64,000 bases of DNA, from positions 10,449,789 through 10,513,788 of the forward strand of contig CM119266.1 of assembly GCA_051294375.1 (NCBI GenBank). Reading direction: 5' to 3'. Within the stretch, counting starts at the first letter, position 1. Each line of letters starts with the position of its first letter. The position numbers and the translations under genes were made by a program. The DNA is from Paraspadella gotoi. Taxonomy: Eukaryota > Animalia > Chaetognatha. The notes under the pieces were generated by a model. The model did no database searches. It was given only the letters and a program-made list of their open reading frames with translations, and was not told the DNA's origin. Positions 33,711 to 62,879 of the stretch are shown here, one piece after another.

Positions 33711-33798
<88 letters not shown>

Positions 33799-33960: not shown

Positions 33961-34917
33961 AAGTTAAATTATTGTTATTATAGTTCATTCTCAAAACTGT
34001 ATTTGCTATTTGGGTCGAAGTGAAAAAGTACTATTTTCCGTTTGGCTTTTGTTGACGGCAAAAATTCCTATTAGTAATCAAGAGAGAGCGGGTTATCATT
34101 AAGATATTGGAAACAAAAGGCTAAAAGTTATGTTCTTAATGATACGTATTGATGATATGTGCTTAATAATGATGTTTATAATAACACGCACAATTACGTG
34201 CGTCAAGCATATCATATTTTCATTTTTTGTTCTTTTTTACTTAGTACTTTCGGTTTTATACTTACGTATTATTAATTTTCGACAATTTCATAATGTTGTT
34301 GTCCTTTCTTCCTCTTTCCCCAAAAATAAATATCCTTTTAAAATACTATATTTCACAAAAGAAAAGTTGTCATTGTTAAGCTTTCTAGTAACGTTTGTGT
34401 TTTAAATCTGTTTTAAAATTGTATATTTTGCTTGTTGAAAACATTGTTTATCGTCACCAAATAATGAATTTACTGTATCTTCAACTTCAACTGTATTTAG
34501 GATAAAATATAACATCACACTAGACAACGATAAAAACCAACAAAAAATATTTGTGACAAAATTGTTTAAAAACGGACTGAGGAAGAAAGATAAGATTAGA
34601 AAAAAAGGAAAAAAAAGAAAGAAAAGAATCCACCAACCGACAAAGCGACTGATAAGATTTGAAAAATAACCTCAACGCATTTAAAAATTCGCTCGAAGCT
34701 TGGAAGAGAGAAGATTTTTATGGATTTGTGAAAAGAAATGTGATAAAAATTGTTAAAATCAGTGCGATGGGGAGAGAAGGAACCTTTGATTTATTTTCAT
34801 TCTTGACGGGAATGTGAGCTAAAAAAAAATATTTAACGGCGTCCTTTCAATCTTCCCCTTAAGTTCTTGAGTCTTTTGAGAGAATCTTGGCTCTCTTTCT
34901 CTTTTTCTTCTCTCTCT

Positions 34918-34989
<72 letters not shown>

Positions 34990-35062
34990 TCTCTCTCTCT
35001 CTCTTTCTTTCTTTCACTTTGTTTGCCTCCCTCTTCGTTAGTGGGTCGACGTCGGCAACCAA

Positions 35063-35099
<37 letters not shown>

Positions 35100-35511
35100 A
35101 GAGAGGAGGAGAGAGAGAAGAAGAGAGAGAGAGAGAGAGATGAGAGTGGAGGAAGCACCGCTCGTAATTTATTCTACATTTTTAAGAATCGGCCTTGAAT
35201 TGGCAACTGGTAAAGACGTTCGCCTTCGAGTGTTTACCTTTTTCCGCAAAAAAAAAAAAAAAATTGTTTTCGAACAAAAACTCAAAGTTTCTCATTTTTA
35301 AAAAATTTTCTCAGTTTGAAAGAAAAAACAATTTCGAAGTCTTTTTTTTTTCCACAGTTCTTATCGTTCGTTTATCCTTATTGACGAAACGAAACGAAAC
35401 GAAGGCCAAAAAGTTTTTTTTTTATCTAAAAAAAATGGTTTTGCTTTTCTTAATTTTTTTAACGATAACTATTTGACTAGCTTTACTTAATATTTTTCTG
35501 CCGCGAAAAAA

Positions 35512-36789
35512 ATGCCGAAGCCGTGGCGCCGCGAGAATTTTCCTCGCCGCGCAATATCCCCGCGCCGTGGCAATTCGCAACGCCGCGCAATTTTCACTTT
35601 ACCGCGTCGTCCTCATTCGCCACGCCGTGAAAATTCGCCGCCCGGCGCCGCCATTACACCGCCCGGCGCCACCGCGAGAACGATCGCGGGCGAGGATTCC
35701 GCCGTCGTGACTTTCCACTCGATCTCCGTCGAGGGCGCCACCGCGTGGTTGGCCTACGGACGGCGCAGCTCTCGCCAGGCGATCTACGCAATCGTCGCCG
35801 GATCCACGGAGGGGCTGCTAGAGGAGGCGTTTCGGCCCTGGATACGACTGGGCTGCGACATCGTGGCCTTGGCGCCGCCCACTCGCGTGGTGACGGGACT
35901 GTGGAGTTGGCGAACGCGGCGACGTCTCTCCTGCGTCTCCGTCGTCGATCGAGCGGAATGGAAATGCGGCGAGACGATCGATCCAGAGGCGGATGAACTC
36001 GTGGCTTATTTGCGGCGTCAATCCTTCGAGAGTCTGGGTGACGCGGAGATGGCGTTGGAGGAATGTTTGGAAGAAAACTTGGCTGGGATCGAAAGTCAAA
36101 CGTCTTATGATTCCGGATCGAGGCCAGTTTCGCAAGATGCTCGTCCAGTGTCTCCAACCTCGTCAACTCGGAACGTAACTATGTTAAATACCGACAAAAG
36201 ACCACTATCGTCAGCAATTGACTCACAGGCCTTTAACGGACCCGCGAAGGAGACAATCTCACGCTCGGATCGGCGAAGTCACAGAAACAAAATAAATAAT
36301 CGTAACGGGGCGCCCGACATGGCACGTGGAGGCCGCTGGACCGAACGGCACGGGCAGGCCCAGCCCTTTCAGCCGGGCCGCTCTCGAGGGGCTAGAGAAG
36401 ATCGATACAAGGATATTTTCCCGTCGCCCTCGACATCTTCCGGAACGGAGACACCTGAAGCTTCGCGTCTCGATAATTCGCGTCCGTCGCCGTCGAGATC
36501 GAAGGAGTCGGCGGTCGATGCGTCCACGGCAAGAAACGCTCGGACAAACATACTCTTTAATGAGAGGATGCAGCCGCCGCCGCCGCAGCCGTACCAGCCG
36601 CATGTCTCGCCGATGTGCAATTCCTCGCTCTCGCGATCCAACTTACCGAGACTTTTTAAACTTTCCCACGAGGGCGTCAACTTATGGAAGGAATGAGGCT
36701 CGCTTATTCAATGGGTCAGTAATTTTGAAATATCATAGCGAAAAGTTTTATGGAAAGAATTAATAAAGAAAAAAAGAAAAAAAAGAAAA

Positions 36790-36870
<81 letters not shown>

Positions 36871-38289
36871 GTAAACAACATCTCACTGACAATATCTCCT
36901 GTTTCGCTTTTTCTCTATATTTAAAAACATTTTTTAAAAAATTGAGAAAATTTGGCACTCGTCGTCATAACAGTATCCATTTTGATCAGATTCTAAATAA
37001 CATTCTGAGTTTTACTTACATAGGGATTCTTTATGCAAATAAGCAACATTTCTCTTTTATTTATAGACCACGGAACATGCATTGGCGTATGGCTCCGACA
37101 AGACCTACCAGAATGGCGATGTCGAATCACTTCTGGGCGAAGAGAGGAGATGGAAGAAGGGAAAGTACGAGAGAGGAAGTGAACGGCGAGAGGGAACGAG
37201 AGAAGAAAGGAGAAATGGAGGAGCAGAACTCTCTGGATTTTCAAAATGTCCGCAAGGAGAAAGAATGGCGTGAAAGTGGCAACGCTCAATATGAATTGAA
37301 AGATAATTATCCCGGGAAAGAGTGGCAAGGACACGAGTGGAAGAATGACTGCTCTTCGAAAGAGAAAGAGAAAGAAAGAGAGGAGAGAGAGGAAGAGGAG
37401 GGCGATGGAAAGAAAGAGGGGATGGAGAGAGAGGAAGAGAAAGAGGATCAGCTCCAGCAATCCTTGAAAAGGAGCGAAGAAGCTCGAAAAGCTCATTGGA
37501 ATTTGATGGAGCGAAAGTTGCGAAGCGGACAATTGGGTCCGCAAGAGAGAAGAGACTGGATCGAATACAAACGAATGGAATGGATCGAGAATAACAAGTA
37601 AGATGAAGAAGGAGAGGAAAGGAGACCGCCTTCGATTCGTCGCCGCTGACGGAAGAAGAAACGAGAGGACTCTACGACTTTCGATCGAAGAGAATTCCTC
37701 GAGTTTTGTCGTCAACGACATAAAGGAGGAATTCGGTGGAAGAGAATCGAGCGATCGATGGAGGAGGTGTCGGTGGGGAGGGGGGGGAAGGGGGAGGAAG
37801 GAGGAGTAGAGAAGGCGGGGAGAGGGGAGATAGAACTGGAAGGAGAAGCAAGGCGGGGAGCGGAACGATGAGAACGTGGTTGAAAACCCAGAGAAGTGGG
37901 AGAGAACGGAGAGGAGACGGGTGGAGAATGCCGAGAGAAGGGGTAGAAAGACGTCGGAGAGGAGAACGGGGGTGGAGAACGGAGAGAAGTGTTGAGAAGA
38001 TAACGGAATGAGGAGACGGGGTGGAGAATGAGAGAGTGTGAAGAGAAGGAGAGGCAGAACGGGTGGAAGAAACTGAGAGAAGTGGGAGGAAGAACGGAGA
38101 GGAGAAGCGGGTGGAAAAACCCAGAGAATGGGATAAAGAACGGAGAAACGGGGTGGAGAATGGAGAGAAGTGTGAGAAGAACGGAGAGGAGAACGGGGTG
38201 GAGAACGGAGAGCAGTTGGTGGAGAACGGAGACTTAAATGACTCTTTCCCGGAGGCGGAGATCGTGAGAGAAGTCACAGCTGGATAAGG
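35512..38289 (+). CDS. Unidentified coding region: 394-aa ORF (35512-36696), putative intron 36715-37066, then a Glu/Arg-rich frameshifted second exon
   Basis: Long GC-rich ORF with a globular-looking middle (VVTFHSISVEGATAWLAYG...CLEENL); donor gtcagt at 36715, acceptor ttatag at 37066. Frames break at apparent indels. No family recognised. Confidence 0.5.
37835..38230 (+). repeat. Degenerate ~40-45 bp purine-rich minisatellite (encodes GVENGEKCEKNGEEN-like units)
   Basis: Repeated ggagaggagaacggggtggagaatggagagaagtg; also at 42440-42840. Confidence 0.75.
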
Positions 38290-38344
38290 TTAAGCAAAAG
38301 CGGTAACTCTCTCTCTCTCNNNNNNNNNNNNNNNNNNNNNNNNN

Positions 38345-39447
38345 ATCCGAGTGATCGCGCGTAATGAGCAGTGCACCGTCCACAGCGTTTTGGGGCGATT
38401 ATGACGCTAGTAGGCGTCATCGTCGTCGCAGTCATTTTTGGCTGTTCGCTTGTAAATTTTTTGTTGTTAAAAGTTAAATTATTGTATTATAGTTCATTCT
38501 CAAAACTGTTATTTGCTATTTGGTGTCGAAGTGAAAAAAGTACCTATTTTTCGTTTGGCTTTTTTGGACGGCAAAAATTCCTATTAGTAATCAAGAGGAG
38601 AGAGCGGGTTTATCATTAAGTATATTGGGAAACAAAAGCTAAAAAGTTATTTCTTAATGATACGTCATTGATGATATGTGCTTAAATTAATGATGGGTTG
38701 TTATTAATAACACCACAATACGGCGTGTCAAGCATATCATATCTTTTCATTTTTGTTCTTTTTATTAGAGTTATTTCGGTTATTATACTTACGTCATTAT
38801 TAATTTCGACAATTTCATAATGTTGTGTGTCCTTTTCTTCCTCTTTCCCCAAAAAATAAAATTCCTTTTAAAATACTATATTTCACAAAGAAAGTTGTCA
38901 TTGTTAAGTTTCTAGTAAGTTTGTGTTTTAAATCTGTTTTTAAAATTGTATATTTTGCTTGTTGAAAACATTGTTATCGTCACAAATTAATGAAATTTAC
39001 TGTATCTTCAACTTCAACGTATAGGATAAAAATATAACATCACATAGACAAAGATAAAAACCAACAAAAAATATTTGTGACAAAATTGTTTTAAAAAACG
39101 GCTGAGGAAGAAAGATAAGATTAGAAAAAAAAAAAAAGGAAGAAAAGAATGCCACAACGACCCAAAGCGACTGATAAGATTGAAAAAATAACCTCAACGC
39201 ATTTTAAAAATTCGCTCGAAGCTGGAAGAGAAGAAGATTTTAGGATTTGTGAAAAGAAATGTGATAAAATTGTTTAAAATCAGTGCGAATGGGGATGAGA
39301 AGGAACCTGTGATTTAATTTTCATTCTTGACGGGAATGTGAGCTAAAAAAAAATATTTAAACGGCGTCCTTTCAATCTTCTCCTTAAGTTCTTGAGTCTT
39401 TGAGAGAATTCTTGGCTCTCTTCTCTTTTTCTTCTCTCTCTCCTTCT

Positions 39448-39519
<72 letters not shown>

Positions 39520-42500
39520 CTCTCTCTCTCTCTTTCTTTCTTTCACTTTGTTTGCCTCCCTCTTCGTTAGGTGGGTCGACGTCGGCAACCAAGGAAAGAG
39601 AGAGAGAGAGAGACGAGAGAGAGAGAGGGGAGAGAGGAGGAGAGAGAGACCAGAAGAGGAGAGTAGAGAGAGAGATGAGAGTGGAGTGGAAGCACCGCTT
39701 CGTAATTTATTCTACATTTTTAAGAATCGGCCTTGAATTTCGGCAACTGGTAAAGACGTTTCGCCTTCGAGTGTTTACCTTTTTCCCGCAAAAAAAAAAA
39801 ATTGTTTTCGAACAAAACTCAAAGTTTCTCATTTTTAAAAAATTGTTTCTCAGTTTTGAAAAAAAACAATTTCGAAGTCTTTTTTTTTTTCACAGTTCTT
39901 CTCGTTCGTTTTCCTTTATTGACGAAACGAAACGAAACGGAAGGCCAAAAAGTTTTTATTTTTTGGATCTCACAAAAATGGTTTTTGCTTTTTTCTTAAT
40001 TTTTTTTAACGTTAACTATTTGACTAGCTTTCTTAATATTTTTGTCTGCCGCCGAAAAAAAATGCCGATAAGCCGTGGCCGCCGCGAGAATTTCCCTCGC
40101 CGCGCATTCCCCGCGCCGTGGGCATAATTCGCATACGCCGCTCAATTTTCACTTACCGCGTCGTCCTCATCTCACGCCGTAAATTCGCCGCCCGGCGCCA
40201 CCGCGAGAACGATGCGCGGGCGAGGATTCCGCCGTCGTGACTTTCCACTCGATCCTCCGTCGCCGGGCGCCACCGCTGTGGTTGGCCTACGGGACGGCTC
40301 AGGCTCTCGCCAGGCGCATCTACGCAATCGTCGCGGTATCCACGGGCGGGGCTGCTAGAGGAGGCGTTTCGGCCCTGCGATACGACTGGGCGCGATATCG
40401 GCGCCTTGGCGGCCGCCCCACTCGCGTGGTGCACGGGACTGTGGAGTTGTGCGAAACGCGGGCGACGTTCTCTCCCTGCGTCTCCGCGTCGCATCGAGCG
40501 GAAATGGAAACTGCGGCGAGACGATCGATCCAGAGGCGGATGAACTCGTGGCTTATTTGCCGGGCTCAATCCTTCGAGAGTTCTGGGTGGTGTGACGGGA
40601 GATGGCGTTGGCAGGAATGTTTGGAAGAAAACTTGGCTGGGATCGAAAGTTCAAACGTTCTTATGATTCCGGATCGAGGCCAGTTTCGCAAGATGCTCGT
40701 CCAGTGTCTCCAACCTCGTCAACTTCGCGAACGTAACATGTTAAATACCGACAAAAAGACCACTATCGTCAGCAATTTTGACTCACAGGCCTTTAACGGA
40801 CCCGCGAAGGTAGACAATCTCACGCTCGGATCGGCGAAAGTCACAAGAAACAAATAAATAATCGTAACGGGGGCGCGCCCGACATGGCACGTGGAGGCCG
40901 CTGGACCGAACGGCACGGCAGGCCCAGCCCTTTCAGCCGCCGCCCGGCTTTTTTTTTTCTCGAGGGGCTAGAGAAGATCGATACAAGGATATTTTCCGTC
41001 GCCCTCGACATCTTCCGGAACGGAGACCACCTGAGCTTCGCGTCTCGATTAATTTCGCGTCCGTCGCCGTCGCGAGATCGAAGGGAGTCGGCGGGTCGAT
41101 GCGCTTCCACGGCAGAAGAAACGTCGGGACAAACATACTCTTTAATTGAGAGGATTTGCAGCCGCCGCCGCCCAGGCGACAGCCGCATGTCTCGCCGATG
41201 ATGCAATTCTTCGCTCCCTCGCGATCCAACTTTACCCGAGCACTTTTTTTTTAACTTTCCCACGAGGGCGTCAACTTATGGAAGGAATGAGGCTCGCTTA
41301 TTCCAATGGGTCAGTAATTTTGAAATATCATAGCCGAAAAGTTTATGGAAAGAATTAATAAGAAAAAAAGAAAAAAAAGAAAAAAAAAAGAAAGACAAGA
41401 AAGATAAGAAATAAAGAAAGAAAGAAAGATGTAAACAACTCTCACTGACAATATCTCCTGTTTCGCTTTTTCTCTATATTTAAAAACATTTTTTAAAAAA
41501 TTGAGAAAAATTTGCACTCGTCGTCATAACAGTATTCCATTTTGATTCAGCATTCTAAAAGAACATTCCGATGCTTTTTACTTACATAGCGGATTCTTTT
41601 ATTGCAAAATAAGCAACATTTTTCTTCTTTTTATTTATAGACCACGGAACATGCATATGGCGTATGGCTCCGGACAGACCTACCAGAATGGCGATGGTCG
41701 AATCAACTTCTGGGCGAAGAGAGGAGATGGAAGAAGGGAAAGTTACGAGAGAGGAAGTTGAACGGCTTGAGAGGGAACGCAGGAAGAAGAAAAGGAGAAA
41801 TGGAGGAGCAGAACTCTCTGGATTTTCAAAATGTCCGCAAGGAGAAGAATGGCGTGGAAAGTGGCAACGCTCAATATGAATTGAAAGATATATTATCCCG
41901 GAAAGAGTTGGCAAGGACACGAGTGGAAGAATTGACTGCTCTTGCGAAAGAAGAAAGAGAAAGAAAGAGAGGAGAGAGAGAGGAAGAGGTGCGATGGAAA
42001 GAAGAGGGGATGGAGAGAGAGGAATAGAGAAAGAGGATCAGCTCCAGCAATCCTTGAAAAGGAGCGAAGAAGAAGCTCGAAAAGCTCATTGGAATTTGAT
42101 GGAGCGAAAGTTGCGAAGCGGACAATTGGGTCGCAAAGAGAGAAGGAGACTGGATCGAATACAAACGAATGGATCGAGAATACAAGAAGATGAAGAAGGA
42201 GAGGAAAGGAGACCGCCTTCGATTCGTCCGCCGCTGACGGAAGAAGAACGAGAGGAACTCTACGACTTCGATCGAAGAGAATTCCTCGCAGTTTTGTCGT
42301 CACGACATAAGGGAGGAATTCGGTGGAGGAGAGAATCGAGCGATCGATGGAGGAGGTGTCGGTGGGGAGGGGAGGGAGGGAGGAGGAAGGAGGAGAGGAG
42401 AAGGCGGGGAGAGGGGAGATAGAACTGGAAGAGAAGCGAAGGCGGGGAGCGGAACGATGAGAACGTGGTTAGAGAAAACCCATAGAAGTGGGAGAAGAAA

Positions 42501-42926
42501 ACGGAGAGGAGAACGGGGTGGAGATATGCGAGAGAAAGGGGAGAAGAACTGGAGAGGAGAACGGGTGGGAAGAGAGAAGTGTAGAGAAGAACGGAGAGGA
42601 GAACCGGGGTTGAGAATGGAGAGAAGTGTGAAAAGAAGAACGGCAAGAGGAGAACGGGGTGGAGAATGGAGAAAAGAAGTGGTGAGAAGGAAACGGAGAG
42701 GAAGAACGGGGTGGAAAACCACAGAGAAGTGGGAAAAGAACGGAGAGGAGAACGAGGGTGGAGAATGGAAGAAGAGTGATGAGAGAACGGAGAGGAGAAA
42801 GGGGGTGGAGAACGGAGAGCCAGTTGGTGGAGGAACGGAGACTTAAATGACTCTTTCCAGCGAGGCGGAGATCGTGAGAGAAGTCACAGCTGGATAAGGT
42901 TAAGGCTCAAAAGCGGTAACTCTCTC

Positions 42927-42960
<34 letters not shown>
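38345..42960 (+). repeat. Copy B of the tandem duplication, with a frameshift-riddled version of the 35512 ORF and of the last FAM187A-like exon
   Basis: Colinear with 33843-38319; excess of single-base insertions typical of raw long reads. Confidence 0.9.
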
Positions 42961-43126: not shown

Positions 43127-44305
43127 TCACCACACACACTTCGCACAAATCCGATCCAATTTCTTGTCGTCAACACATCCGCGCTCGTTTTTATTGAATT
43201 AAATTAGAATTATTTTAAAACTGTGAACTCCTCTGCTGACCGTCGCGAGTTTCATAAGTTTTTTCTAATTAAAACTAAAAGTTCGCATTATTATGAAATT
43301 TGTACAACTGACTTTATTAATTAATAATTAGTGGGGTTTTTTTTTTAACACGAAGGTGAACGAGAAAAAAAATCGTTATTTTCATTCGTTTTAAAAAGAA
43401 TTTTCATCCTTTGTTTTAGAAGCGTTATTTTTACCTCACGCGACTATTTTTCTTTCTCGGGTCATTTTTCACGTTCTTCTTGTTTCTGTAGATAATTTTT
43501 TTTTTTTGAAGCGAGATAACGAGAACTTTTTTTGTTATTCCAAAATTCTTTTCCAGAGTCCTGACAGAATTTATAAACAACTAAAAATAACATTCTCGAA
43601 AAATCAAAGAAAACTCTGCTCCAAAAACTTAACTTTTCGAAAATCAAAGAAAGTTTGCAAGAGTATCGACTTTATGCGAACGGGACATTCAAACTGATAT
43701 CGTCCGTCCTATTGCGTCCGGTCGTTCCCATTTATCACAGAAACGAAAGCCATTCCGGGGTAAGTTATTTCACGTTTTCTTTTTACACTTTTTCCAATCG
43801 TCTAATTGCTCGCCAATTACCATCAGTGCTTTAACTTACCTAAAAATATTGCTTGTTTTCTCGTGACACGATTCAATCCCTTTGTGCGGGTTATAGTTAC
43901 AGCGGACGTCCGCATGGTCATTCTCCGCGTTAATTCAATTGGGTCAACACCGACGCTTTCTTTATCAAACTAACCTTTTAATATGACCCAAAGGTGTGTA
44001 CTATGTATGAACCAGGTTCAATTTATTCTATTAAAGATAAAAATATTTCGCAGAGTACATACTAATTAATACGTAGGAAATCTATCAGTAAAATTTAATG
44101 AAGATTACAAATATTCGAGATTTAAAAATGAAAGAAAGAAAAATAAAAGAAATACACAAAGAAAGAATGTATGTAAAATTTTCAGTGAAATGTAAAGTTT
44201 GTACGTAGAGGATATTAATCACTATTTTTCCTTTGTCTCTGTCTCTCAATATAATCTCTTTCTTTTTTTTTTTTTAGTAACTACATCCTCGAACTTTTCC
44301 CCTCA

Positions 44306-44927
44306 ATGGAAGAGATGGCGTTTCTCTACGAAGAAGAGTCGACGGCTACTGCTCTCCGAAATGACGGTGAGTAGAATTTATAATTTAGTTGTAAAATGTA
44401 AAGAAGTTTTAATCAATAATGATTCATGTTTGCCTGTAAATCTCATTGTTCGTCTTTTCCTATTTATTTCAGCCGCTGATTCCAGACGTCACTGCCGCAG
44501 CCGCAGCCGCAGCCAAAGTCACAGCTTCAGCCCAAACCCTGTTGACTCCAACAGTGATACTGGCGATAACCGTCACTGTCTTCAAAGCGAACGCGCGATT
44601 GTCATTTGTCGACGCACTTTTCACAGGCGATGCTCAACAACTTCCTCCGGTGAGTCCAGTTTCGCTTCAAGCGGATCGTCGACTGATGCTTTCTTCACGG
44701 ATTCCGAAGAAGGGCTCGACGTGGAAGACGGATGCAGCGGGGATTTTGAGAAACACAATTGGGATGATGAGTGGAAGGACTCTTATTGGGATGATGATGA
44801 TAAATATTATCACGATGTTTATGATGATGATGATGATGATGACGACGAAGTTTGTGACGACGACGATGACGGCGATGACTTTTTAGACGATTACGACTAC
44901 TTTGACGACTATGGCGATGATGATTAA
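44306..44927 (+). CDS. Two-exon orphan protein (171 aa) with an RS dipeptide patch and an Asp/Tyr/Trp-rich acidic tail. Exons 44306-44366, 44473-44927
   Basis: ATG 44306, phase-1 donor gtgagt at 44367, acceptor tttcag at 44472, in frame to TAA. Tail NWDDEWKDSYWDDDDKYYHDVYDDDD. Confidence 0.7.
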
Positions 44928-45559
44928 GAAAAATAAATTATAAAGTTAAAAATTTGAACCATTTTGACAAACTCCAAGCTTACAACACTAAACTTTATTA
45001 AGAAAGCACATAGTTGTTATTTAAAAAAATATTATTCTAAATTATAATGATATTTTTCTTCGTAGACTTTTTCATTAAGAAAAATAAAATGAAATTTTAA
45101 AGCATTAGATTGACAAGCAAAATCGACTTGAACCTGTTTAAAATAGTAATTAAAATTGAACCTCAAGGTTGCTTAAGGGGACAAGTAGGTAAGTGTATAG
45201 AAAAAATGTTTATAAAATTACAAAATGTTAAAGTATAAATCGGCCACAAGATCAGATAAAATATTTTTTGTCAGATGATTAAAAACAAAACTAAACAAAT
45301 GTTCCCTCGAGACCTATATTGTTTTTTTGTATGGATATAATCGCATTCACTTTGGCTATTCTGGATTTGCCTTTGATTGCTTTCCAGCTTGACTGCATAT
45401 TTCCTTTTAAATTTTTCAATTAGTTATTTTATCTTATATTTTAATATTTTATATTTTAATATTACTTGTAATATTAAAATATAAAATATAAAATAAATAA
45501 ATATATATTACTGATATATTTTACGAGTATAAAACAAAGCCTTACCTAAATCTTAATTT

Positions 45560-45790
45560 ATGAAGTTTTATCTTTCATTATTTTTCTCACATCTACAAAA
45601 TTGGATATAGAAATTTAAAGAAATAAATTATTCGTCCTTTTCCTTGTATTTCCGTGGGATGCTTGCTGTCTCCTTTTCTGGTTTCTGTAGTTAACCGAGT
45701 TTCCCGGGTATGGTATCAAAACATCGCCTGATACAGACGAGTCCAGATATGTATCTGTGCTTTCCTTCCCGGGCTCCCCTGCTCTAAATG
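45560..45790 (-). pseudogene. Degenerate paralogous fragment related to 46050-46120 and 55163-55230
   Basis: 'catctacaaaattgg...ccttttccttgtatttc' is shared with 46066-46110; 'gtttcccgggtatg...aaaacatcgcctgata..gacgagtcc.gatatgtatc' is shared with 55166-55225. No clean ORF. Confidence 0.5.
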
Positions 45791-46035
45791 TAACTTAAAA
45801 AAATAACTTAATGCTGCCATCATTTTTTTCTTTTTTTTTCATTTATTCACGACATATGCATTTCTTTATCTAGTTATTTGTAATTAGCAGTAGAATTAAT
45901 AAAATTGACAAATCTAACAAAATAATTTAAAAAGTTTCTGGTAAAGCCCCCGATAGGTAAGGTCGCCGATTTTCTTCCCAACACTACATACATTATATAT
46001 TTTACATCTAAAAAAAGCTTTACTATAATCTTAAT

Positions 46036-46439: not shown

Positions 46440-46454
46440 AGAAAGTGAAGATTG

Positions 46455-46926
46455 TTCAAGCCACTGGAAATCCACAATACAGCATTTGAAAAAGCAAAAA
46501 GTGTACTTCTGGATGAAAAACTTGGGAGGGTGAGAGTTCCCTCAACCAAACTTGAAGATGAGCTGATTGTACTCACAGATGGTTCTCAGCATGCCATTGG
46601 ATCTGTGATTCTGCAAAAGCTGTATCCTACTTCAGCAGAGATTGCAGCAGGCGCTGATAAAGACAAGAGGCAACTCTACATTGTCCAATGTTACTCAAAG
46701 ACTTTAGTTCCAGCAAAAAGAAGTTTGCCAACTTTTTATAAAGAGTTTTTGGCTCTTTATGAAACAGTTCACAGATTTAGTTATCTTTTCACTGCAAGAC
46801 CATTCTACATAATCACTGATAGTCAAGTGTTGAGAAGATGGGCTAACCTGGACAAAGTCGATGATGCCTTTGTGAGAAGAATCATCTATCTTCAGAGTTT
46901 TGACTTCAAAATTCTTTTTATTGAAT
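46455..46926 (+). pseudogene. pol: pol fragment: RT connection and Ty3/gypsy RNase H
   Basis: AFEKAK...LIVLTDGSQHAIGSVILQ...YSKTL...KEFLAL...IITDSQVL...YLQSFDFKILFIE; resumes as SRANPADVVSR at 49800 after the nested insertion. Confidence 0.9.
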
Positions 46927-47169
46927 AGTGGAGGATAGTATTTTTAGTAGAAAAATTCGACGCCAAGGTGAAATTGAAGGAGAATTTATTTAGTGTAACA
47001 TCGAAGGGAAAGAAATAATAATAATGAGCGCGAGAATAAAATAACAATGACTTTTATATGAACTACTTTGTTTATCAAAGTAGGAATGTAAACAGAATGG
47101 AATTTTAGGCCGAGAGAAATATTATTTTACATTTTTGTAATTTACTAAATTCTTTCTCCAATCTTCACT
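46927..47169 (-). repeat. 3' LTR of the inner element
   Basis: Direct repeat of 49564-49796 and inverted copy of 54120-54365; preceded (element sense) by the same ggtaacatggccg as the outer 3' LTR. Confidence 0.92.
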
Positions 47170-47417
47170 CGGCCATGTTACCAAAATTTCAAAAACAATT
47201 AAAATAATATTTCTAAAAATGATACTATAAAAATACTCAGGGTTAAAAAAAATATATTTTTAAGCCAAAATAACACTATAAATTCACAAGGTTCTACTTT
47301 AATTGTATCAGTCAATGGAATCGCGAATATATAAAAGGGAATTAATTTCAAGTTTTATTATACACTTTCTTTCAAAATAAATTTCATAAGCTAACAATTT
47401 TCAATCTAACAAAAAAA

Positions 47418-48360
47418 ATGTTTGCCATACTTCTTTTCTTTTTCTCGGTAAGTCGATGCTCTTTTCTTTAAAATTCACGTTATCAAACTTTTGTAAAACA
47501 AAAGCATATGAAAATTGCATTATGCAGACGAAAATAGATAAGAACGCAAAACAATTCAAATATAAAATCATAACGACGAATTCAATTTATAGAATAATTA
47601 TTTTCTAAAGCACAAATAAGTTGAATTCGAAATGCAATAATTTTTAATAATAATCAAACGGAAATAATATATAGACACAATTCAATCAAGAATGTATTCT
47701 TAAAGTATAACAATACAGCAAAATGCTCAGAATGCTAAGCTTATACAATGGTATTTAAAATCAACTAGGAATTAACATATAATGAACCATCAGTTGTTAA
47801 CAATTTTGACGAGATTGCTATTTTATATGTTTCGTAAATTCATCAATTTTTTCTATGGAAAAAAAAGAAAAAAACTTTCACTAATTTTTCGCGAAATAAG
47901 TTTACTGTCACATTGATTATTGATCGTTTCTGATTTAAATATTGGTTCAACATGCAATATTTATTTTTGATCAGTTATCACAATTAATAAATTTAACTTT
48001 TAGCTCACACATATAGCATCCCCCTCTCACACTCCATGGCAATCTTAACATATTCAAGCGACTTGTCCGCCGTTAAGAATCTCGCAGGTGTCAGGGTGAT
48101 CGGTGCCTTTCTCTTCAACCGTGAGTCAAAACCTGAATCTCAAAAGGTTTGATTAATACGACATACATGTAATCAAAATTAATTTATTATGATTAAATCA
48201 TCATTGAATTAATATATATTAATCAATTATACTAGTGAAATTTACAAGTGGTCACCCATTCTCTAATTCGTTCTACAGCACCGGCAAAGACCAGGCACAA
48301 ACGCCGTGCGCGTCTCCACGTTTAAACAAAAGACGCTCGCATCCATCAATTATCATTAAA
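47418..48360 (+). pseudogene. Antisense spliced unit of the inner element: leader exon 47418-47447, internal exon 48004-48120, last exon from 48279
   Basis: TATA-like tatataaaag at ~47328; MFAILLFFFS|gtaagt; exon 48004-48120 is open in phase 1 (...AGVRVIGAFLFN|gtgagt); acceptor ctacag at 48278. There is a phase mismatch at exon 1 (decay or a poly-T read error). Confidence 0.55.
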
Positions 48361-49547
48361 TTCGCCAATAATTTCTCATCCATTGAAATTGCATTTAATA
48401 ATTATTTGTCACATTTATTTAATAAAACAAGTAAAACGATTTGGAAATTACTCAAAAAAAAAACCAAAAAAATCCCAATAGTCAGCAATTGCAACGAAAT
48501 ACAACGAAGTATCTAGTGAAAATAAGAATACAAAATTCAAAATCCACATTTACGATATTGTCTCATTCGCGAAAATAAGATGAATTGCATCAATAGCGAT
48601 CTCCTGCATTTGCAGAAGCAGAGCGGCGAGCAGCCAAACGGGTAAGAGGCGGTCCGCAGGCGGGCATGGCACGGCAGTCCAGCGTTCTCATTTTGTCAAT
48701 CATTTTGATGAGGCTCTCTCTGGACAAGTTTGAACGAATAAGATGATCTCCAGGGAATACTTTAAATTCACCAGAGACTAGAGAATGGCACTTGAATGAA
48801 TTTGTGCTATTTTGGCAACTATTTCCCACGCATCTTGATCCACTTTCCTTTGAATTTTTCGTGGAGAACCAAGGAAAAATGAAGTTTTCTTCTTCTAGAC
48901 TAATCTCCAACTTTTAGATGAGATGTAATATCTCTCGGATTTTTGCGTTTCCGGCGTTGAAGGAACCGGTTCACATCATGGCGCAAAATGTCATTCTGAA
49001 GTTTCTCCTTGCTTCCAATGCTTCTCTCACACTCTTTGCCGGCGCCGTCACGCCGCTAGATGGCAGTTCTCCGTCCGGGTCCAACAGGTTTGCAGATGAA
49101 CGACAAAATGGACGCAGAGGACTTTTTCCAGATAAATATCTGTACAGTTGAATTGTAAACAACTCTAGCTTCGCCGACGAGAGAATGAAATGGAAGATGA
49201 GGTTCATGTTCTTGTAATTTGAGCATTATTCTCGTAATAGAATTGATGAATCTCTCTACTTTAGACTGACATCTTGACACATTTGCCAATCCATGTATCA
49301 ACTCCACTCCATGTTGACTAAGGATATTTGGCTGAGGGAGTGTTTGATTTACAAAGAGCATTGTCAGCATGGATGCGACATGTAAAATTTCGCATACCCT
49401 CATCCATGACACAAAAAAAACACCCATTTTATATCATTTTGCGATGACGTTTTCTCGTTTCTTCAAAAAGTCCAATGCCAAAAGTTCATCTTTTGCCATT
49501 CTCAGACGCATCTTCTTTGAAGGTGTAATCCCACCAATTAGGTGGGA

Positions 49548-49563
49548 CCCACCGCTGCCACCA
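49548..49563 (-). promoter_or_regulatory. Primer-binding site complementary to the tRNA-Leu 3' end
   Basis: Minus strand reads TGGTGGCAGCGGTGGG directly after the 5' LTR, complementary to the ...CCCACCGCTGCCA-CCA end of eukaryotic tRNA-Leu. Confidence 0.85.
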
Positions 49564-49796
49564 AGTGGAGGATAGTATTTTTAGTAGAAAATAATTGACG
49601 CCAAGGTGAAATTGAAGGAGAATTTATTTAGTGTAACATCGAAGGGAAGAAATAATAAAATGGCGCGAGAAATAATAACAATGACTTTTATATGAACACT
49701 TTATTTATCAAATAGGAATGTAAACGAGAATGGAATTTAGGCGAAGAAATATTATTTACATTGTAATTTACTATATTCTTTCTCCTCATCTTCACT
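49564..49796 (-). repeat. 5' LTR of the inner element
   Basis: Direct repeat of 46927-47169, adjacent to the PBS. Confidence 0.92.
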
Positions 49797-51870
49797 GAAT
49801 CTAGAGCAAATCCAGCTGATGTTGTGAGCAGATGGAAGAAAATGATGGAGGAGATGGTACTTATGACAGAAGATTTCTCCAAGGCAGGATTCTGAATGGT
49901 AAAGGAGAAAAAGTTCCGCTTGAATCACTTCTGAATAAAAGTATTTAGATGAATTGTGTCTCATTTTTGAAAGCAAGAAGAGGACTACTATGTCTAAGCT
50001 TAATGTCTCCCACATTGAAATGTCCAGCCGGGACCGACTCCGGATATGGATGACACTGAGTGGACGCATTTTCCGGCAAATGATTCCACTGATCCGGCAC
50101 ACCCTCCGTCGGCAGTCGGTGACACAAGTAGAGTGTTCATCAGATGACTGGGATCCGGACAATCTAATAGAGAAGGAATTAGACAAAAGGAGCTATTCCA
50201 TCTCTTCAATTGTGCTACTCACAGTAGAGTGACAAGGCGTCGCAGAAAGCGTGAAATCAAGAGTGGAAAGGTCTTCTTGCCCCTTGGACAGTCTCAATTG
50301 TTCAACTCTCAGATAAAGATGTAGCTTCAGGCCACACTGAGGAAGTTGACGAAGTTGTGGATGAGCCAATTAAAGCCAAGGAAGTTCCAGTTTTTGCAGA
50401 CAAAGTTCTCCAGAAAATCTTGGAAATGTCAACAGGCGCCTGATGTGAGTGAAAAAATTGATTATTTGAAGGAAAAAAGGAAGTTACCAGATAAACATGA
50501 AGCTTTTTTTATCTATGGGGACTTTGGCATTCCTTCGTCACCGCAGTCTCTTCATCATCAGTAATCAGGGAGTGCTACTGCGCTTGTGACAGCCCCTGAT
50601 GAGGAATCAAGTTTCTCCTTGTTGTGTCTGAGATGGTATTTAATCGTCTTTTGAGTAAGACTCATGAAACAAAATTTGCTGCGGTCAATCAAGGTTCTGA
50701 TCATGTTGTTGTTGGTGATCGTGATCCTGTATCAACTCATGCTGGAGTGAATTGAACCTTAAAAACTGGGAAAAAGTTACTACATACTTGGGATGAGAGA
50801 GAAGATTTCTACATACATCAGGAATTGTGCAATCTGCCTTCAGAACAATCACCAAAAAGGTTCCAGAGATGAAGGAGGGATGCAGACACCCATGGAGCCA
50901 GGAAACTCCGTTGCAATTGACTTTGCAGGACCCTTCCACAATGATGCTGCATTTCCGTACATTTTTTGTGCTGTGGACCTCTTCTCCAGATATGCATGGG
51001 CATATCCTACAAAATCTACGCAAGACAAAGAAGTAGAGGATAGTCTAATGAAGATAAGACAAGAGTGGAGTGGTTTACCTCATCGCATCCATGCTGACAA
51101 TGCTCTTTGTAATCAAACACTCCCTCAGCCAATATCCTTAGTCAACATGGAGTGGAGTTGATACATGGATTGGCAAATGTGTCAAGATGTCAGTCTAAAG
51201 TAGAGAGATTCATCAATTCAATTACGAGAATAATGCTCAAATTCAAGAACATGAACCTCATCTTCCATTTCATTCTCTCGTCGGCGAAGCTAGAGTAGTT
51301 TACAATTCAACTTGTACAGATATTCTATCTGGAAAAGTCCATCTGACGTCCATTTTTGTCGTTCATCTGCAAACCTGTTGGACCCGGACGGAGAACTGCC
51401 ATCTAGCGGCGTGACGGCGCCGGCAAAGAGTGTGAGAGAAACATTGGAAGCAAGGAGGAGACTTCAGAATGACATTTTGCACCATGACGTGAACTGGTTC
51501 CTTCAACGCCGGAAACGCGAGAATCGGAGAGATATCACGTCGCATCGAAAAATTGGAGATCTCGTTATGAAGAAACGTACTTCGTTTTTCCCTGGTTCTC
51601 CAAGGAAAATTCAAAGGAAAGTGGATCAAGATGCGTGGGAAATAGTTTCCAAAATAGCAACGAATTCATTCAAGTGCCATTCTCTAGTCTCTGGTGAATT
51701 TAAAGTATTCCCTGGAGATCATCTTATTCGTTCAAACTTATCCAGAGAAAGTCTCATCAAAATGGTTGACAAAATGAGAACGCTGGACCGCCGTGCCATG
51801 CCCGCCGGCGGACCGCCTCTTACCCGTTTGGCTGCTCTGCTTCTGCAAATGCAGGGATCGCTATTGATGC
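49797..51870 (+). pseudogene. pol: pol continuation: linker and integrase (HHCC, DDE core, C-terminal domain), frameshifted
   Basis: ...THAG...MREKISTYIRNCAIC; VAIDFAGPF...CAVDLFSRYAWAYP...IHADNA; SKVERF; RKIGDLVMKK...WEIVSKIATNSFKC. Confidence 0.9.
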
Positions 51871-52036
51871 AATTCATCTTATTTTCGCCGAAACAGACAA
51901 TATTGTCAATGTGGAATTTTGAATTTTGTATTTTTATTCTCACTAAATACTTCATTGTATTTCGTTGCAATTGCTAACTATTCGGATTAATTTTTAGAAT
52001 ATTTTGTTTGAGTAAATACCAAATCGTTTGAATTGT

Positions 52037-53873
52037 TTAATTAAAATATGACAATGAATTATTACATGCAATTTCAATAGATGAGAATATATTGGCGAAA
52101 TTAATGATAATTGATGGATGCGAGCGTCTTTTGTTTAAACGTGGGAGATGCGCACGGCGTTTGTGCCGGGTCTGCCGTGGCTGTAGAACGAATTAGAGAA
52201 TGGGTGACCACTTGTAAATTTCACTGTATATTTGATTAATATATATTATTCAATCATTATTATACTCACATAGTAGACATTTTCAAGCCGGAAAAAGCCG
52301 TCGGGATCCTTCTTTCGAAGGCATTGGCGGAGGGCGGTGATCAAGGCTGTAAGAGAGAAATAGAAAATGGTCATGACTATGCAATTGATTATTCTAATAC
52401 TAATCATGTTAATTCCTATTAATTCGTGTGTGTACTAATATTGATTTTATTGAAAATTAGGATGCTTGACTCACTGTTCAGGATCAGAGCGCCGATTAGG
52501 CCCCAGACGCCCGCGATGATGCTGGCTTGGCGCTTGTAGTCCTCCTTGAAGTTGTCCAGAACTTCGTCGAACTTGTTGGAGCCTCTTCGAAGGGCCCGAT
52601 GATGATGTGGCCCTGTGTGTCGGTCACTGAGAAGTGTCCGGTTTGTCCGGTTTTCTGTAGGGAGAGAGGTATGAGAAGGATACAACTACAAATAAGTTGG
52701 GAGTAAAAAACATTCATATGATACATACCATACCGCTCCGGCGAAGTTCTTCCCGGATTGTTGTATCCGGGCATTGAACTTCCATCCGGCAAGGTGGGAG
52801 TGTGCCGGAATCGGCGAGAGAGATGATGAGCTGGGTGGATCATTGTATCATTAGTAGTTGGGATCCTTACCTCTCCTATTCCTTACCATTATTATGTTAT
52901 ACCTCCTCAATTGTCAATAGAAAGGGGTCCTAAAAGGTCCCTATCCCCTAGGCCCTGTCTTATAAAGAGAGATATAGGTTATGCTTAAGGGTTCATATAT
53001 TAATTTTTTTATGTCTTATGCCTCAACAGGTTGCATTTCAAAGGATCCGGAAACGACGGCATTCTGGACCTCGGCGTCGACGCAGGGGAGGCGGACATTT
53101 AATGCCGCCGCCCGGACTTGGCATCCAGAGCGGCGACAGAAAATGCACGCCAACACTGTGAAGACAACGAGAAAAAGAATGGCGCCGACCGCGATTCCCG
53201 CAATCTGCCTACCAGTGAGACCCTCGCCGATCTCCTCAATGAATTGGGTAATAGTCACAGTAAAGGGGTACCTGGGCCTATTAGGCACGACGACCACTAC
53301 TCCACTGTGATTGATTATCGATTCGCAGGTGTCTACCATATAGATTGAAAGATCGGTGAGAAAAATTGGTGCCTAAAAGTTTAACCTTAATGGCGATTAG
53401 ATCGCTTAAATGTGTTAAGATAAGCCTAATGTGTGAGATAAAAGTTATTTTGTTAATTTTGATAACTGATCAAAAATAAATAAATTTGCATGTTGAACCA
53501 ATATTTAAATCAGAAACGATCAATAATCAGTGAGACAGTAAACTTAATTCGCGAAAAATTAGTGAAAGTTTTTTTTTGTTTTTTTTTCCATAAAAAAAAA
53601 TTTGATGATATTTTATTTCCGTTTTGAATTTTTTTAAAAATTATTGCATTTCGAATTCAGCTTATTTGTGCTTTTAGAAGAATAATTATTCTATAAATTG
53701 AATTCGTCGTTATGATTTTATATTTGAATTGTTTTGCATTCTATAACTATTATCGTCTGCATGATATATTTTTTTCTTCATATAGCTTTTGTTTTACAAA
53801 AAGTTTGATAACGTGATTTTTTTTTAAAAAAAGAGCATCGACTTACCGTAAGAAGAAAGAGTATGGCAATCAT
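52037..53873 (-). CDS. Antisense retrotransposon-borne five-exon type I membrane protein (isoform B, 174 aa). Exons 53873-53847, 52830-52734, 52654-52475, 52346-52270, 52180-52037
   Basis: All introns are GT-AG and the phases (0,1,1,0) give one open 525-nt frame. Signal peptide MIAILFLLTLIISLADS, Cys pair, two NRT sequons, TM IIAGVWGLIGALILNTLITAL, then RQCLRKK and a basic tail. The frame of the last exon is the least certain part. Confidence 0.7.
53016..53873 (-). CDS. Antisense retrotransposon-borne membrane protein (isoform A, 127 aa). Exons 53873-53847, 53372-53016
   Basis: MIAILFLLT|gtaagt joins in phase 0 to ttttag|APIFLTD...; TM IAGIAVGAILFLVVFTVLACIFC followed by RR; ends at TAA. Confidence 0.7.
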
Positions 53874-53951
53874 ATTTTTTTGTTAGGTCGAAAATTGTTA
53901 GTTTGTGAATTTTTTGTAAGATTGTGTGGACTGAAACTTGAAATTAATTCC

Positions 53952-53961
53952 CTTTTATATA
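53952..53961 (-). promoter_or_regulatory. TATA-like box upstream of the antisense leader exon
   Basis: TATATAAAAG ~80 bp upstream of the ATG, conserved in the inner copy at ~47328. Confidence 0.45.
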
Positions 53962-54119
53962 TTCGCGATTTTATTGACCGTTACATTTAATGTCTCACCT
54001 TGTGTATTTTATAGTGTTATTTTGGCTAAAAATATTATTTTTTTTAACCCTGAGTAAATTTGTAGTATCATTTTTAGAAATATTATTTTGTTTTTTTTGA
54101 AATTTTGGTAACATGGCCG

Positions 54120-54365
54120 AGTGAAGATTGGGAGAAAGAATTCAGTAAATTACAAAAATGTAAATAATATTTTTCTCGGCCTAAAATTCCATTCTCATTT
54201 ACATTCCTACTTTGATAAACAAAGTAGTTCATATAAAAGGCATTGTTATTTTATTCTCGCGCTCATTATTATTATTTCTTTCCCTTCGATGTTTCACTAA
54301 ATAAATTCTCCTTCAATTTCACCTTGGCGTCGAATTATTTTCTACTAAAAATACCATCCTCCACT
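54120..54365 (+). repeat. 3' LTR of the outer element (246 bp)
   Basis: agtgaagat...atcctccact; inverted copy of 46927-47169; followed by TSD AGAA. Confidence 0.92.
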
Positions 54366-54824
54366 AGAATTAACAAAATACACAAATTTAAAAGAATCGT
54401 TTAAAAAATTTCTCGTAAAACCCCCAACAGGCAAGGTTGCCGAATTCCATCTCAAAACCATGACGAGACTATAATACTTTGCATCCCTTGTCCGAAAAAT
54501 CTCTTCCCCAACCGATAGCTCACCGCCGCCCCTTACTTTAATTTGCTTTGGAGTTTCCAAATCCCGGCTTTTGTTGAATAGCCGCGCAAACCAACCAGTG
54601 CGTCGCCGCACCGATGATGCCACCGACGTCAAAATTTGATGCGAAGAGGGCGCCGGGGACTCCACCGGTGCTGCTTTCATCCCTGCAGCACTGACCTCAC
54701 CCCGACTTGTCCCAATTCCTGGCAGAGATGATCTAAAAATAAAAGAAATACCTGTAAATAGAGTTCTTTACGGCTCCAATCTCTTCCTATCCCCCTCTTT
54801 TTGTTGCAGTACATCTCTATCCAT
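54366..54824 (-). pseudogene. 5' half of the orphan gene split by the LTR insertion (54824-54772, 39-nt intron, 54732-54366); reconstructed protein ~263 aa
   Basis: MDRDVLQQKEGDRKRLEP|gtaaag...ttttag in phase 2; the frame runs into the TSD and resumes at 46439. Confidence 0.65.
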
Positions 54825-55383
54825 GTTTATTTTACTTTTTATTCATTTGTTCAATTTTTGTAAATTGTTGACTGAAGTATATCATATTGAAAGTATTTAT
54901 TCGAGTCCCTGGCCGGAATAATATTAGCGTTAAGGGAGAGGAGAGAGAGAGAGAGAGAGACGGGGACGGACGAAGGGCGAATTCGAGACTCACGAAGACT
55001 GAACTAAAAAAGGGGCGGCTCCTCGGGAGAGGGATTGGAAGAGGAGGATGAGGATCGAGGTTGCGATAAGAAAATTAAATATTTGCAAAACCCGAAATGA
55101 CAATAACTATAAAATTTCCAAAAGACAACGTTTACTAAAGTGTTTTCTGGTTTTTACATTTAAACCAGTTTCCCGGGTATGTTAAGCAAAACATCGCCTG
55201 ATAAAGACGAGTCCGGATATGTATCCTTGCTCTCATTTACTATTTTTATTGCTCATCTAAATCCATTGGCCCAAGCAATTTAATATTACAACTGTAACAT
55301 AAGTGGCTGATGTAGCATAGTGCAGCCAATGAGATGCTGTCGCTAGTTGCTAGCTAGTACCGATAACTACTTTCTAGTTTCTT

Positions 55384-60559: not shown

Positions 60560-62597
60560 TCGGTAAAGAGGACGAATACGAGAGTCTTTATTCGGTTTAT
60601 TCCAAGAGAACGTTATTTTATTTTAAGTTCGTATCAAAAATCATTAGGAAAATAATTCAATCGTTTAGATTCGTTCCTCGGAAGAGTCGGCCGATTTTGT
60701 CGAATTGCTCAACAGAGCCAAACCCTTTTTAGTAATATTATATTCAGAGAACTAAAAAAAAAACAAAATCTATCAAGTTTTCAGTAAAAATTCGTTTAGC
60801 GTTATTTTCCGCCGTTGGCACGTCCACAGAGGGAGGAAGAGAGCGACGTCGAACACATCGAAGACGCCGACTTGATATATTACGAAAGTCAACAACCCGT
60901 AGAGATCTTGATCCGCGGACGGCTTACGGGAACGTTAACAGGATATTCGAAAATTTGTTTTACGAATTTCCGAACTGACGCTGAAACGATCCGGACTCGT
61001 CTATCTATACACAGTATTCTTAAAATTAAATATATTTCGCTTTAAAAAATATATGAGTGTCGAGGAGGCTCCCAAAAATCCCAAATTTCCATAAAAGAAA
61101 AAACGCGCTTTTAAACGTTCCAAGTAAGGATGGTAAATGTTGTGAATTGCATAATAGCATCAATTTTTAATTTTTCTGCCAAAATAGCCCCGATACGAAA
61201 AAAAAATTAGACCCTTTTTATAAATATATTAATCACAGAAGCGTGAATTTCCCGATCACCAGTCCGAGACAAATCGAAAAATTAGAGAAACTCAATAAAA
61301 ATTTATTGCTATTCATATTTATACATACAAATATAAGAATAAGAAATTAAAAATTTTCCCGTTCTTCATTTCGTCCTGCAATGAAAAACCGCAGTTCGAT
61401 CTCACCATATTACAGGTCGGAAAAGGCGTCAGCCACTTCATGGTCATTCGGTCTCTCTCCAGACTTCTGTCGTCATCCATAAGCAGGAATACCCGCATTA
61501 AGCTCTTCCGCGTTAAATGTTTAAGATCCTTTAGTAAGCTATATTTAAAAAATCAACATTACGAAACGTGTTTCAAAGAAAAAAGAAACCAAAAATTTGT
61601 ACTGACTCCACCAGGCACTCACATCGAATTTAAATCCTGGTCTTCGTTTTACTGCTCAAAATTCATAGGCGCCTGCGACACAGAAGCGATAAATACCCTG
61701 AATAAAAATCTGAATCTGAACAGAGAGTACATTCCCTTGGAAGAGGGAGAGGTCAAGAACAGACCTTGGTGCCAATTCAAGCACGAAAACGAACACAGTA
61801 GGGACTGCGAAAAATGCGGTAGCGCCATGCCATGCATCAAATTTTTAAAATGAAGTAACATTATGAGCAATTTAAGATTGGTTTCATACGCCTATCAGAT
61901 AATTAATACCTATGATAAAACACATACCTTTCCTATCAGGCACTATCAGGCAAAGAGCGAGGAAGAATTTGAAAATTACACCGTTCAAAAACATTTTTTG
62001 GATTCTCTGTATAATGACTCTTACAAATTAAACGAACTCATAACTACCAACAATGATTTAGAAATAACGGATAAAATTCGCAAAGAGTACAAAAGCGCAA
62101 AAAACTGTGAATTATGTAAGATTCCATTTCCAAAAAAAAATGATTTATTATTTCAGAAACATAGTAAAGTTTTACATCATGAGCATTTATCTGGCAATAT
62201 TGATTTGGATTACACATTTAACAATAAAATATATGCTATAGTTTGCAATCAATGTAATTTAGCATTGATAGACAAGAGCGAAATTACTATAGCTATACAA
62301 AATCTCAGTTATGACTTCACCCAGATCCTCTCCTCTTCCATAGCGAACTTAAGCCATTATTTTCGCAGAGTGGATGTCTTGGGTAAGACGGAAGAAAAGG
62401 TCATGAGCGTCAGCATACCTTTCTTATACCAGGACTGCAGAGCCGAAAAGAAGCGAAAGATCGAAGAGTACAGAAAGGGCACGGTTCCCAACCTGATCGA
62501 AGAGAGAAAAAAAGAAAAGTGGTTTTCGCTGACATGCCCGGGAATCTCCGAAGCTTACGACCGTCTGGAGGCGCTGGAGGCCGCGGGAGGCGGCTGA
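60560..62597 (+). pseudogene. polB: Polinton/Maverick (adintovirus-like) protein-primed DNA polymerase B, N-terminal/exonuclease half, decayed
   Basis: Ordered motifs across frameshifts: RGGS..NALLNVPSKDGKC; VNFP...IEKLEKLN; SHFMVIRSLSRLL; KCLRSF...QHYETC; ExoI FIGACDTE; EndoVII-like CELCKIPF...VLHHEHLSG...CNQCNL; ExoII QNLSYD. Polymerase palm motifs not seen. Confidence 0.8.
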
Positions 62598-62879
62598 AGC
62601 CGGCGAGAAAGGTCCGCCCGATGAACGAAGACAAACAATGGGAGTCGATTCGAACGGCGGGAGCCGGACTTCGAGGCTGTGCTCCGCGAGGACGAAGACG
62701 GACGATTCGGAGAACGAACGACGATAATGACCGAACCGCTTGGAAAGAACGGGGTCGCGTTCCAAAAGCACGGTTCCGCCTGTGGAAACACACCGCTCAG
62801 GAAAAGAGTTTCCAAGGACAAACAACTGACGACACTAAGTCGCCAGCTTGCGGGGAGTGAATGAACCTCCCAGGTCTCT

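Follow-up and report, generated by a model that had tools for sequence, protein, structure and literature searches.

An LTR retrotransposon in the window (the whole stretch of 64,000 nucleotides analysed here) holds promoter-like and exon-like signals on the opposite strand, in the interval where env would normally sit. This raises the question of whether the element carries a spliced antisense gene there, and what such a gene could provide. The original prediction read the interval as an independently transcribed accessory gene system. Part of that reading stands, in that the unit is element-borne, antisense and spliced with predicted small membrane products, whereas its basis in FAST fusogens falls away. 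We regard it as very probable that the antisense spliced unit is real and borne by the element, and as probable that it is protein-coding in the family. The best explanation overall, held with about even confidence, is an antisense spliced unit whose two predicted small membrane proteins play an accessory role at the host surface.

The element and its surroundings

The retrotransposon lies within a member of another repeat, whose paralogue just upstream shows an empty site. The features of the element are as follows:

46444-54365, plus strand: Ty3/gypsy LTR retrotransposon, recognised by TSD, LTR stub, empty-like site and a pol match from 46455 to a related pol protein (P0001)
46444-46454, plus strand: 5′ LTR stub of 11 nt, joined straight to RNase H
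46455-46925, plus strand: pol RNase H (Pfam RT_RNaseH, E=1.6e-13; 61% identical to P0001)
46927-49796, minus strand: nested, inverted second copy within pol, internally deleted (LTRs, TSD GAAT)
47280-48440, plus strand: partial antisense unit in the nested copy
49797-51790, plus strand: remaining pol including integrase, in several frames (tblastn with P0001; Pfam rve and Integrase_H2C2)
54120-54365, plus strand: 3′ LTR of 246 nt with AGT...ACT termini, 97.5% identical to the nested 3′ LTR
45674-45767 with 55143-55237, and 45888-46008 with 54362-54485: paired repeat segments around the element

The claim that the unit lies inside a TSD-bounded element was borne out, with the 4-bp duplication AGAA at 46440-46443 and 54366-54369, though the 5′ LTR is nearly gone. 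The opening 11 letters of the 3′ LTR recur at 46444-46454, between AGAA and the start of the pol match, and both flanks of the element have a counterpart in a paralogous empty-like site near 45888. Direct repeats with short inverted termini and TSDs (AGAA, GAAT) are present, as in Ty3/gypsy LTR elements. The element has lost the rest of its 5′ LTR, gag, protease and RT by deletion. What remains of pol has RNase H before integrase, the latter at about 50530-51785 (+).

The only close protein found, P0001, is a stand-alone 1759-aa pol with long inserts on an 11-kb ENA contig, 61% identical, which contains protease, RT, RNase H and integrase domains and has Ty3 Gag-Pol as its best solved match. 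No loci related to pol were found in the scanned viral contigs, metagenome contigs and prokaryote genomes. Between 51977 and the 3′ LTR there is no sense ORF of at least 120 aa, and hence no large sense-strand ectodomain there as in errantivirus env (F or gB type).

The surrounding DNA is repeat-rich and eukaryotic, with duplicated blocks and N gaps, three of which are exactly 25 N long. The assembly looks rich in errors in places: the two LTRs of the nested element show 18 gap columns against 4 substitutions (229 aligned letters). A 4.5-kb tandem duplication (33846-38318 / 38360-42931; 89% identical, many gaps) flanks a 25-N gap, which likely marks a join made in assembly; an ORF of 401 aa within the duplication (35491-36696) matched nothing in Pfam or NCBIfam. 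A further block, about 3.5 kb long, is duplicated at 3-3689 and 13164-16547 with 87-89% identity and many gaps. Elsewhere in the window, host gene exons with Ig domains and a TSP1-like stretch, which point to an animal host, lie at 32025-33844 (+), an apparent small spliced gene with an Asp-rich tail at its end and no Pfam match at 43740-44930 (+), and ORFs with a weak Endonuclease_7 match (E=0.06) at 61299-62600 (+), which we take to recall the N-terminal portion of a DNA polymerase region of Polinton/Maverick type.

The antisense unit and its splicing

The unit occupies the interval between integrase and the 3′ LTR on the minus strand, with these features, all on that strand:

53954-53961: TATA-like box TATATAAA, the same in both copies
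53847-53873: leader exon, first nine residues of a predicted signal peptide, phase-0 donor, retained in the nested copy
53016-53372: terminal exon of predicted isoform A, with its phase-0 acceptor 53372 in the first intron, open to 53016
52729-52830: exon 2 of isoform B, to the observed donor 52728 (skips ending at 52729)
52475-52654: exon 3 of isoform B, which holds the greater part of the TM helix, both ends observed as splice ends
52270-52346: exon 4 of isoform B, with the TM end, a Cys and basic stop-transfer and a Tyr-containing tail in translation, acceptor seen
52037-52180: last exon, with a GC-rich coding part up to the stop at 52137-52135

The TATA-like box was found where it had been claimed, and the five exons of the original model (53873-53847, 52830-52734, 52654-52475, 52346-52270 and 52180-52037) do have GT-AG ends and do join to 174 aa, but the RNA-like contigs use another second donor, and the last exon in that join is likely frameshifted. 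Dinucleotide shuffles reach at least 174 aa in 1 of 200 cases when the whole region is shuffled and in 2 of 200 with 100-nt blocks, under site definitions that were fitted to the same region and with which the real sequence yields 171 aa. Coding exons have 52-62% GC, with 37% in the leader (27 nt) and 23-35% in the introns, and polyA-like hexamers lie at 52041 and 51938. Transcription of the unit likely starts from a TATA promoter of its own, as the box in both copies and the minus-strand intron skips suggest; the contigs that carry these skips give presence only, with no strand, start or level information.

Part of the stretch occurs in nine public runs, which come from three studies of a single organism; four of the nine (X1, X5, X6 and X7) were compared. 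X5 is labelled RNA by guess, none of the nine being on record as RNA, and X5 and X6 are counted as one dataset because their depths are nearly identical, X6 probably being X5 refiled. Among the 11 joints listed, two distinct skips, both in X5/X6 only, have CT..AC ends, which is GT-AG on the minus strand; the chance of such ends is about 0.0015 per skip, and both skips fall at predicted acceptors. The first removes 52347-52474 and reproduces the predicted junction 52475/52346 exactly. The second removes 52655-52728, so that of the other predicted junction it touches, 52734/52654, the acceptor 52654 was seen but the donor was not: 52728 is used instead, 5 nt from the proposed 52733. A further contig with a variant exon start also uses donor 52728, making two contigs per run in X5 and X6, and donor 52733 is used by no contig in the four runs compared.

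The joints 53847/52830, 53847/53372 and 52270/52180 are absent among the 11 joints listed, from contigs that show presence only. X7 has one contig continuous across both introns, and X1 has one through acceptor 52654. In X5 there are, in addition, contigs that run unspliced through intron 1, the acceptor at 52830 and the last intron; these may stem from sense genomic RNA, from pre-mRNA or from DNA. In X1 the summed contig depth, which is not copy number, is 0-960 over 52322-53452 against about 800-5,500 in the flanking unit, and this dip may mean that the central exons differ among subfamilies. As a separate observation, an X5/X6 contig skips 118 nt at 52703-52820 with GT..AG on the plus strand, either through cryptic splicing of the sense strand or because another copy carries a deletion there. 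Other copies appear diverged across the leader exon (53849-53908), and one X7 contig becomes unlike the window exactly at the last acceptor (52181), together hinting at exchangeable exons with conserved introns.

The nested copy gives a second view of the unit. Its LTRs lie at 49796-49564 and 47169-46927, and below 49564 is a PBS of tRNA-Leu type whose 12-mer equals Leu-annotated PBS rows in supplements of PMC13524379; RT is deleted in this copy as well. The unit had been claimed to be present in this copy, which is only partly so: it keeps the TATA box, the leader exon, the larger part of intron 1 and the last exon, but the middle is missing, nothing matching about 52540-53429 or exon 4. The leader exon (47418-47447) retains its phase-0 donor, and its ATG, frame and donor phase are kept in both copies despite a 3-nt length change. 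Its partial unit includes a 104-nt exon (48017-48120), and where exon 3 ends a match remains, in diverged form. The remaining exons fail to join in frame. Exon and intron divergence between the window copies (8/73 vs 27/482) does not differ significantly (P=0.11). Intron 1 lies inside a copy that has its own LTRs and TSD, and antisense introns are therefore carried through transposition, as had been proposed. At the level of the family, both window copies hold at least part of the unit, and related, diverged sequence occurs in all four runs compared.

Two predicted membrane proteins

The leader joined to the 53372 exon would give the predicted isoform A, of 127 aa and unbroken in the window copy, with a 47-aa ectodomain, one NHS sequon, a TM at about residues 66-88 (mean KD 2.99 by hydropathy), a Cys/Arg stop-transfer and a 39-aa tail. 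An X5/X6 contig spans 53020-53362 of it with 13 differences and no gap. The 10 differences listed fall five at codon position 1, none at position 2 (P=0.022) and five at position 3, and four of these 10 are synonymous against 2.9 expected, which is not significant; the pattern may be taken as weak evidence that isoform A is under constraint. Its single-sequence structure model is poor (pLDDT 57), with the TM helix as the only confident part, and the viral fold search with this model, which returned nothing at E<=0.001, is uninformative.

Isoform B is more damaged. When the window letters are read through donor 52728, a stop follows after 95 aa. The last exon in the window is 2 nt shorter near 52172 than in all four runs compared and in the nested copy, and the frame entered after adding 2 nt reaches a stop codon at 52137-52135, the point at which GC goes down from 62% to 27%. 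Because that stop coincides with the drop in GC, the 47-aa basic tail of the original model is likely 3′ UTR read-through, and the polybasic tail is withdrawn as off-frame. The end of pol likewise differs by 7 nt from all four runs compared.

A further change probably lies in exon 3. The second record of X1 has 19 letters more than the window over 52477-52691, and this excess is probably within exon 3, because the X5/X6 records are ungapped at both of its sides, with no coding gaps over 52475-52504 and 52626-52758. Exon 3 of the window copy is thus likely frameshifted by a deletion between about 52505 and 52625, a position combined from records of different runs and possibly different copies. 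Modulo 3, 19 leaves the remainder needed to bring the donor frame supported by RNA into the TM frame, and the net excess of 18 in X7, over a longer span, is consistent with a deletion in exon 3 and does not locate it.

In undamaged copies isoform B would have roughly 150 aa, with a predicted ectodomain of about 75 aa and a TM of mean KD 2.03 by hydropathy. Its corrected end would be Ser-His-Val, which presumably resembles a class I PDZ-binding motif. An ATG at 52889, directly before a donor at 52886, offers isoform B an alternative start in place of the shared leader.

The intact 174-aa protein was accordingly rejected as a likely misreading of a damaged copy, its second donor being unused in the RNA-like contigs and its last exon likely frameshifted. 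The argument for selection from a frame intact while pol is broken fails with it, because the 174 aa need both that unused donor and the likely frameshifted last exon; the window copy is likely a decaying insertion in which isoform B appears frameshifted twice. The glycosylation sequons claimed for the 174-aa protein are lost too, two NRT sites lying in an exon-3 frame that is not entered from 52728 and a third in the off-frame tail. A signal peptide and TM survive as predictions, given the hydrophobic leader (KD 2.1) and TM, but not in their 174-aa context.

Searches returned no relatives of these proteins. For the 107-aa ORF of isoform A, no homologue was found by a word search (58-188 aa) or by phmmer over 1.84 billion representatives, and there was no match in PDB sequences or NCBIfam. 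In Pfam it matched only the NB glycoprotein, under the cutoff (E=1.4e-4) and likely through TM/Cys bias. Feature-atlas matches for isoform A are generic small eukaryotic TM proteins, all <0.9, with none for exon B3. Isoform B was searched as the single exons B2 and B3, neither of which matched Pfam or NCBIfam, and no Transposase_28 (Retand TRP28 type) or other DNA-binding Pfam domain was found in the A ORF or in B2 and B3.

Known systems and possible roles

Extra ORFs that lie antisense in the interval from pol to the 3′ LTR (aORF-3R) are listed for maize Grande gene23, rice RIRE2, Retand TRP28, PvRetro13 and fungal Boty (PMC7264820, PMC11963269), and brtn of Boty is likewise cited as an antisense extra gene in PMC8365987. 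The maize Grande gene has a separate promoter (PMC7264820), and the plant and fungal products studied look nuclear (PMC7264820, PMC11963269). The unit is like aORF-3R in being antisense, in its place after pol and before the 3′ LTR in a Ty3/gypsy element, in probably having its own promoter (shown for Grande) and in lacking known homologues or function. It differs in its animal host and in encoding predicted type I membrane proteins with a signal peptide rather than nuclear or DNA-binding ones, and also in its introns, at least two of which are seen skipped, and its predicted alternative terminal exons, the introns of brtn lying outside this comparison. In position the unit may thus be likened to aORF-3R, and in predicted form to small viral membrane accessory proteins.

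The FAST proteins of reoviruses have a type III topology and no cleaved signal peptide. Like them and like sORF2, the unit's products have about 100-200 aa and a single TM (by hydropathy, with a helix in the model), and like sORF2 they belong to an LTR element without env; they also carry four K/R within 16 residues after each TM with an adjacent Cys, which is common in type I proteins. Unlike both, they have no MGxxxS/T, residue 2 being Ile with the leader and Val from the internal ATG, and their hydrophobic leader suggests a predicted signal peptide. Hydrophobic moments (amphipathic motifs) are not above shuffles, since 374, 1486 and 171 of 2000 shuffled sequences reached the observed values. 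According to PMC11952523, sORF2 of the MDG1 group, known from insect elements, is encoded on a sense transcript spanning gag and pol and is mostly N-myristoylated, whereas the unit is antisense, after pol and spliced. Membership of FAST or sORF2 was rejected on the myristoylation motif, the predicted signal peptide, strand and position. The suggestion that a small TM and basic tail recall FAST fusogens is given up, with the sequons and tail off-frame and several FAST features lacking.

Accessory proteins that are small and carry a TM have been described before from LTR elements of animals, in PMC11952523 and PMC5408684. The latter gives ORF3 of bdelloid Vesta4 as 220-230 aa with two TM regions, RXXR and a coiled coil; it resembles the unit as a short non-env TM extra gene in an animal LTR element, and the available text of PMC5408684 does not describe it as antisense or intron-containing. 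Metazoan errantiviruses have F-type and gB-type env, and a Leu-type PBS occurs among them (PMC13524379); env of Tor3b/4b has its own internal promoter (PMC4402516), and env-carrying LTR elements are further covered in PMC12992720. Errantivirus and Tor env, like the unit, are membrane protein genes apart from gag-pol, but they have large structured ectodomains and lie on the sense strand, compared with predicted ectodomains of about 47 and 75 aa encoded antisense in the unit. In the literature covered, outside which most subscription papers and repeat-database reports and the sORF2 supplements fall, no paper listing describes an LTR element of an animal with an antisense unit that has several introns and encodes membrane proteins.

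As to function, we put forward tentatively, with less than even confidence, an accessory modulation of the host cell surface, for which the sequence suggests the following course. The unit's own antisense TATA promoter would drive it separately from gag-pol. Its introns, because the unit is antisense to the genomic RNA, would not be spliced from that RNA and would be copied through reverse transcription. The signal peptide would come from a single leader exon, joined to acceptor 53372 for A or to 52830 for B. Two membrane proteins of type I would result, each having a small ectodomain and, as stop-transfer, Cys and basic residues. These proteins could bind or reroute host surface and junction proteins, or exclude re-entry by the family. 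A role on the host cell would fit better than a particle fusogen because a separate antisense promoter uncouples the unit from gag-pol. The accessory role is preferred because the ectodomains are far smaller than those of known env and the promoter is uncoupled; sORF2, by comparison, shares the gag-pol transcript.

A substitute for env, in which small membrane proteins pass capsids from cell to cell and are sORF2/FAST-like in action only, is unlikely, though the least so among the alternatives. The unit occupies the env position, no env lies between pol and the LTR in this element, and both isoforms combine 100-200 aa and a single TM with a Cys and four basic residues within 16 after it. FAST motifs vary, and in some a palmitoylated Cys takes the place of myristate (PMC12945298 and PMC11952523). 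Against this are the lack of MGxxxS/T, the predicted cleavable leader, the amphipathic moments no higher than in shuffles, an antisense position apart from the gag transcript, and a long basic tail that is likely an artefact.

It is more doubtful still that one or more host genes were captured, their own promoter still active, and now decay as passengers without use to the element. The introns, TATA box and polyA signal do look host-like, the nearest matches by features are small TM proteins of eukaryotes of a generic kind (all <0.9) and both window copies are damaged or partial, but the isoform A ORF found no host homologue among the 1.84 billion representatives, and related unit sequence, in diverged versions, occurs in 4/4 runs compared.

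That the antisense transcript acts as RNA, silencing or regulating the element with its reading frames incidental, is improbable, although antisense non-coding transcripts of LTR elements are known and such a role is proposed for micropia (PMC7264820). GC-rich exons, signal-peptide and TM patterns in two frames and codon-position bias speak against it, as does the predicted end of the transcript near 51938, before it reaches the coding region of pol. Nematodes have selfish elements with small TM toxins, and two different small membrane products from one independent promoter could be a toxin and its antidote, a selfish maintenance module favouring carriers; we consider this very improbable, as window copies lacking one product exist. 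Chance splice signals in an error-rich assembly are scarcely credible as an explanation, since the 25-N joins, the 4.5-kb duplication, indel-rich stretches and a 174-aa protein that is itself likely an artefact are outweighed by intron skips at predicted sites in an independent dataset and by the shuffle results.

Beyond the accessory role that we prefer, a bolder reading is conceivable, though we hold it to be unlikely: env would have been replaced by an independently promoted, antisense, alternatively spliced cassette, in which one signal-peptide exon serves two or more interchangeable small membrane proteins that dock at cell junctions, enabling the element to cross between cells or to shut out competitors. 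If this is true, antisense introns surviving reverse transcription would let the element diversify its proteins by host-style exon swapping, with promoter and introns kept. The family bears on how env-less LTR elements move between cells and on what antisense extra genes do. The published sORF2 screen required a myristoylation motif in unspliced short ORFs (PMC11952523), and because of this spliced antisense genes would have been missed. The family thus offers a testable animal case with some splicing evidence, and repeat libraries would be worth screening for spliced antisense membrane genes.
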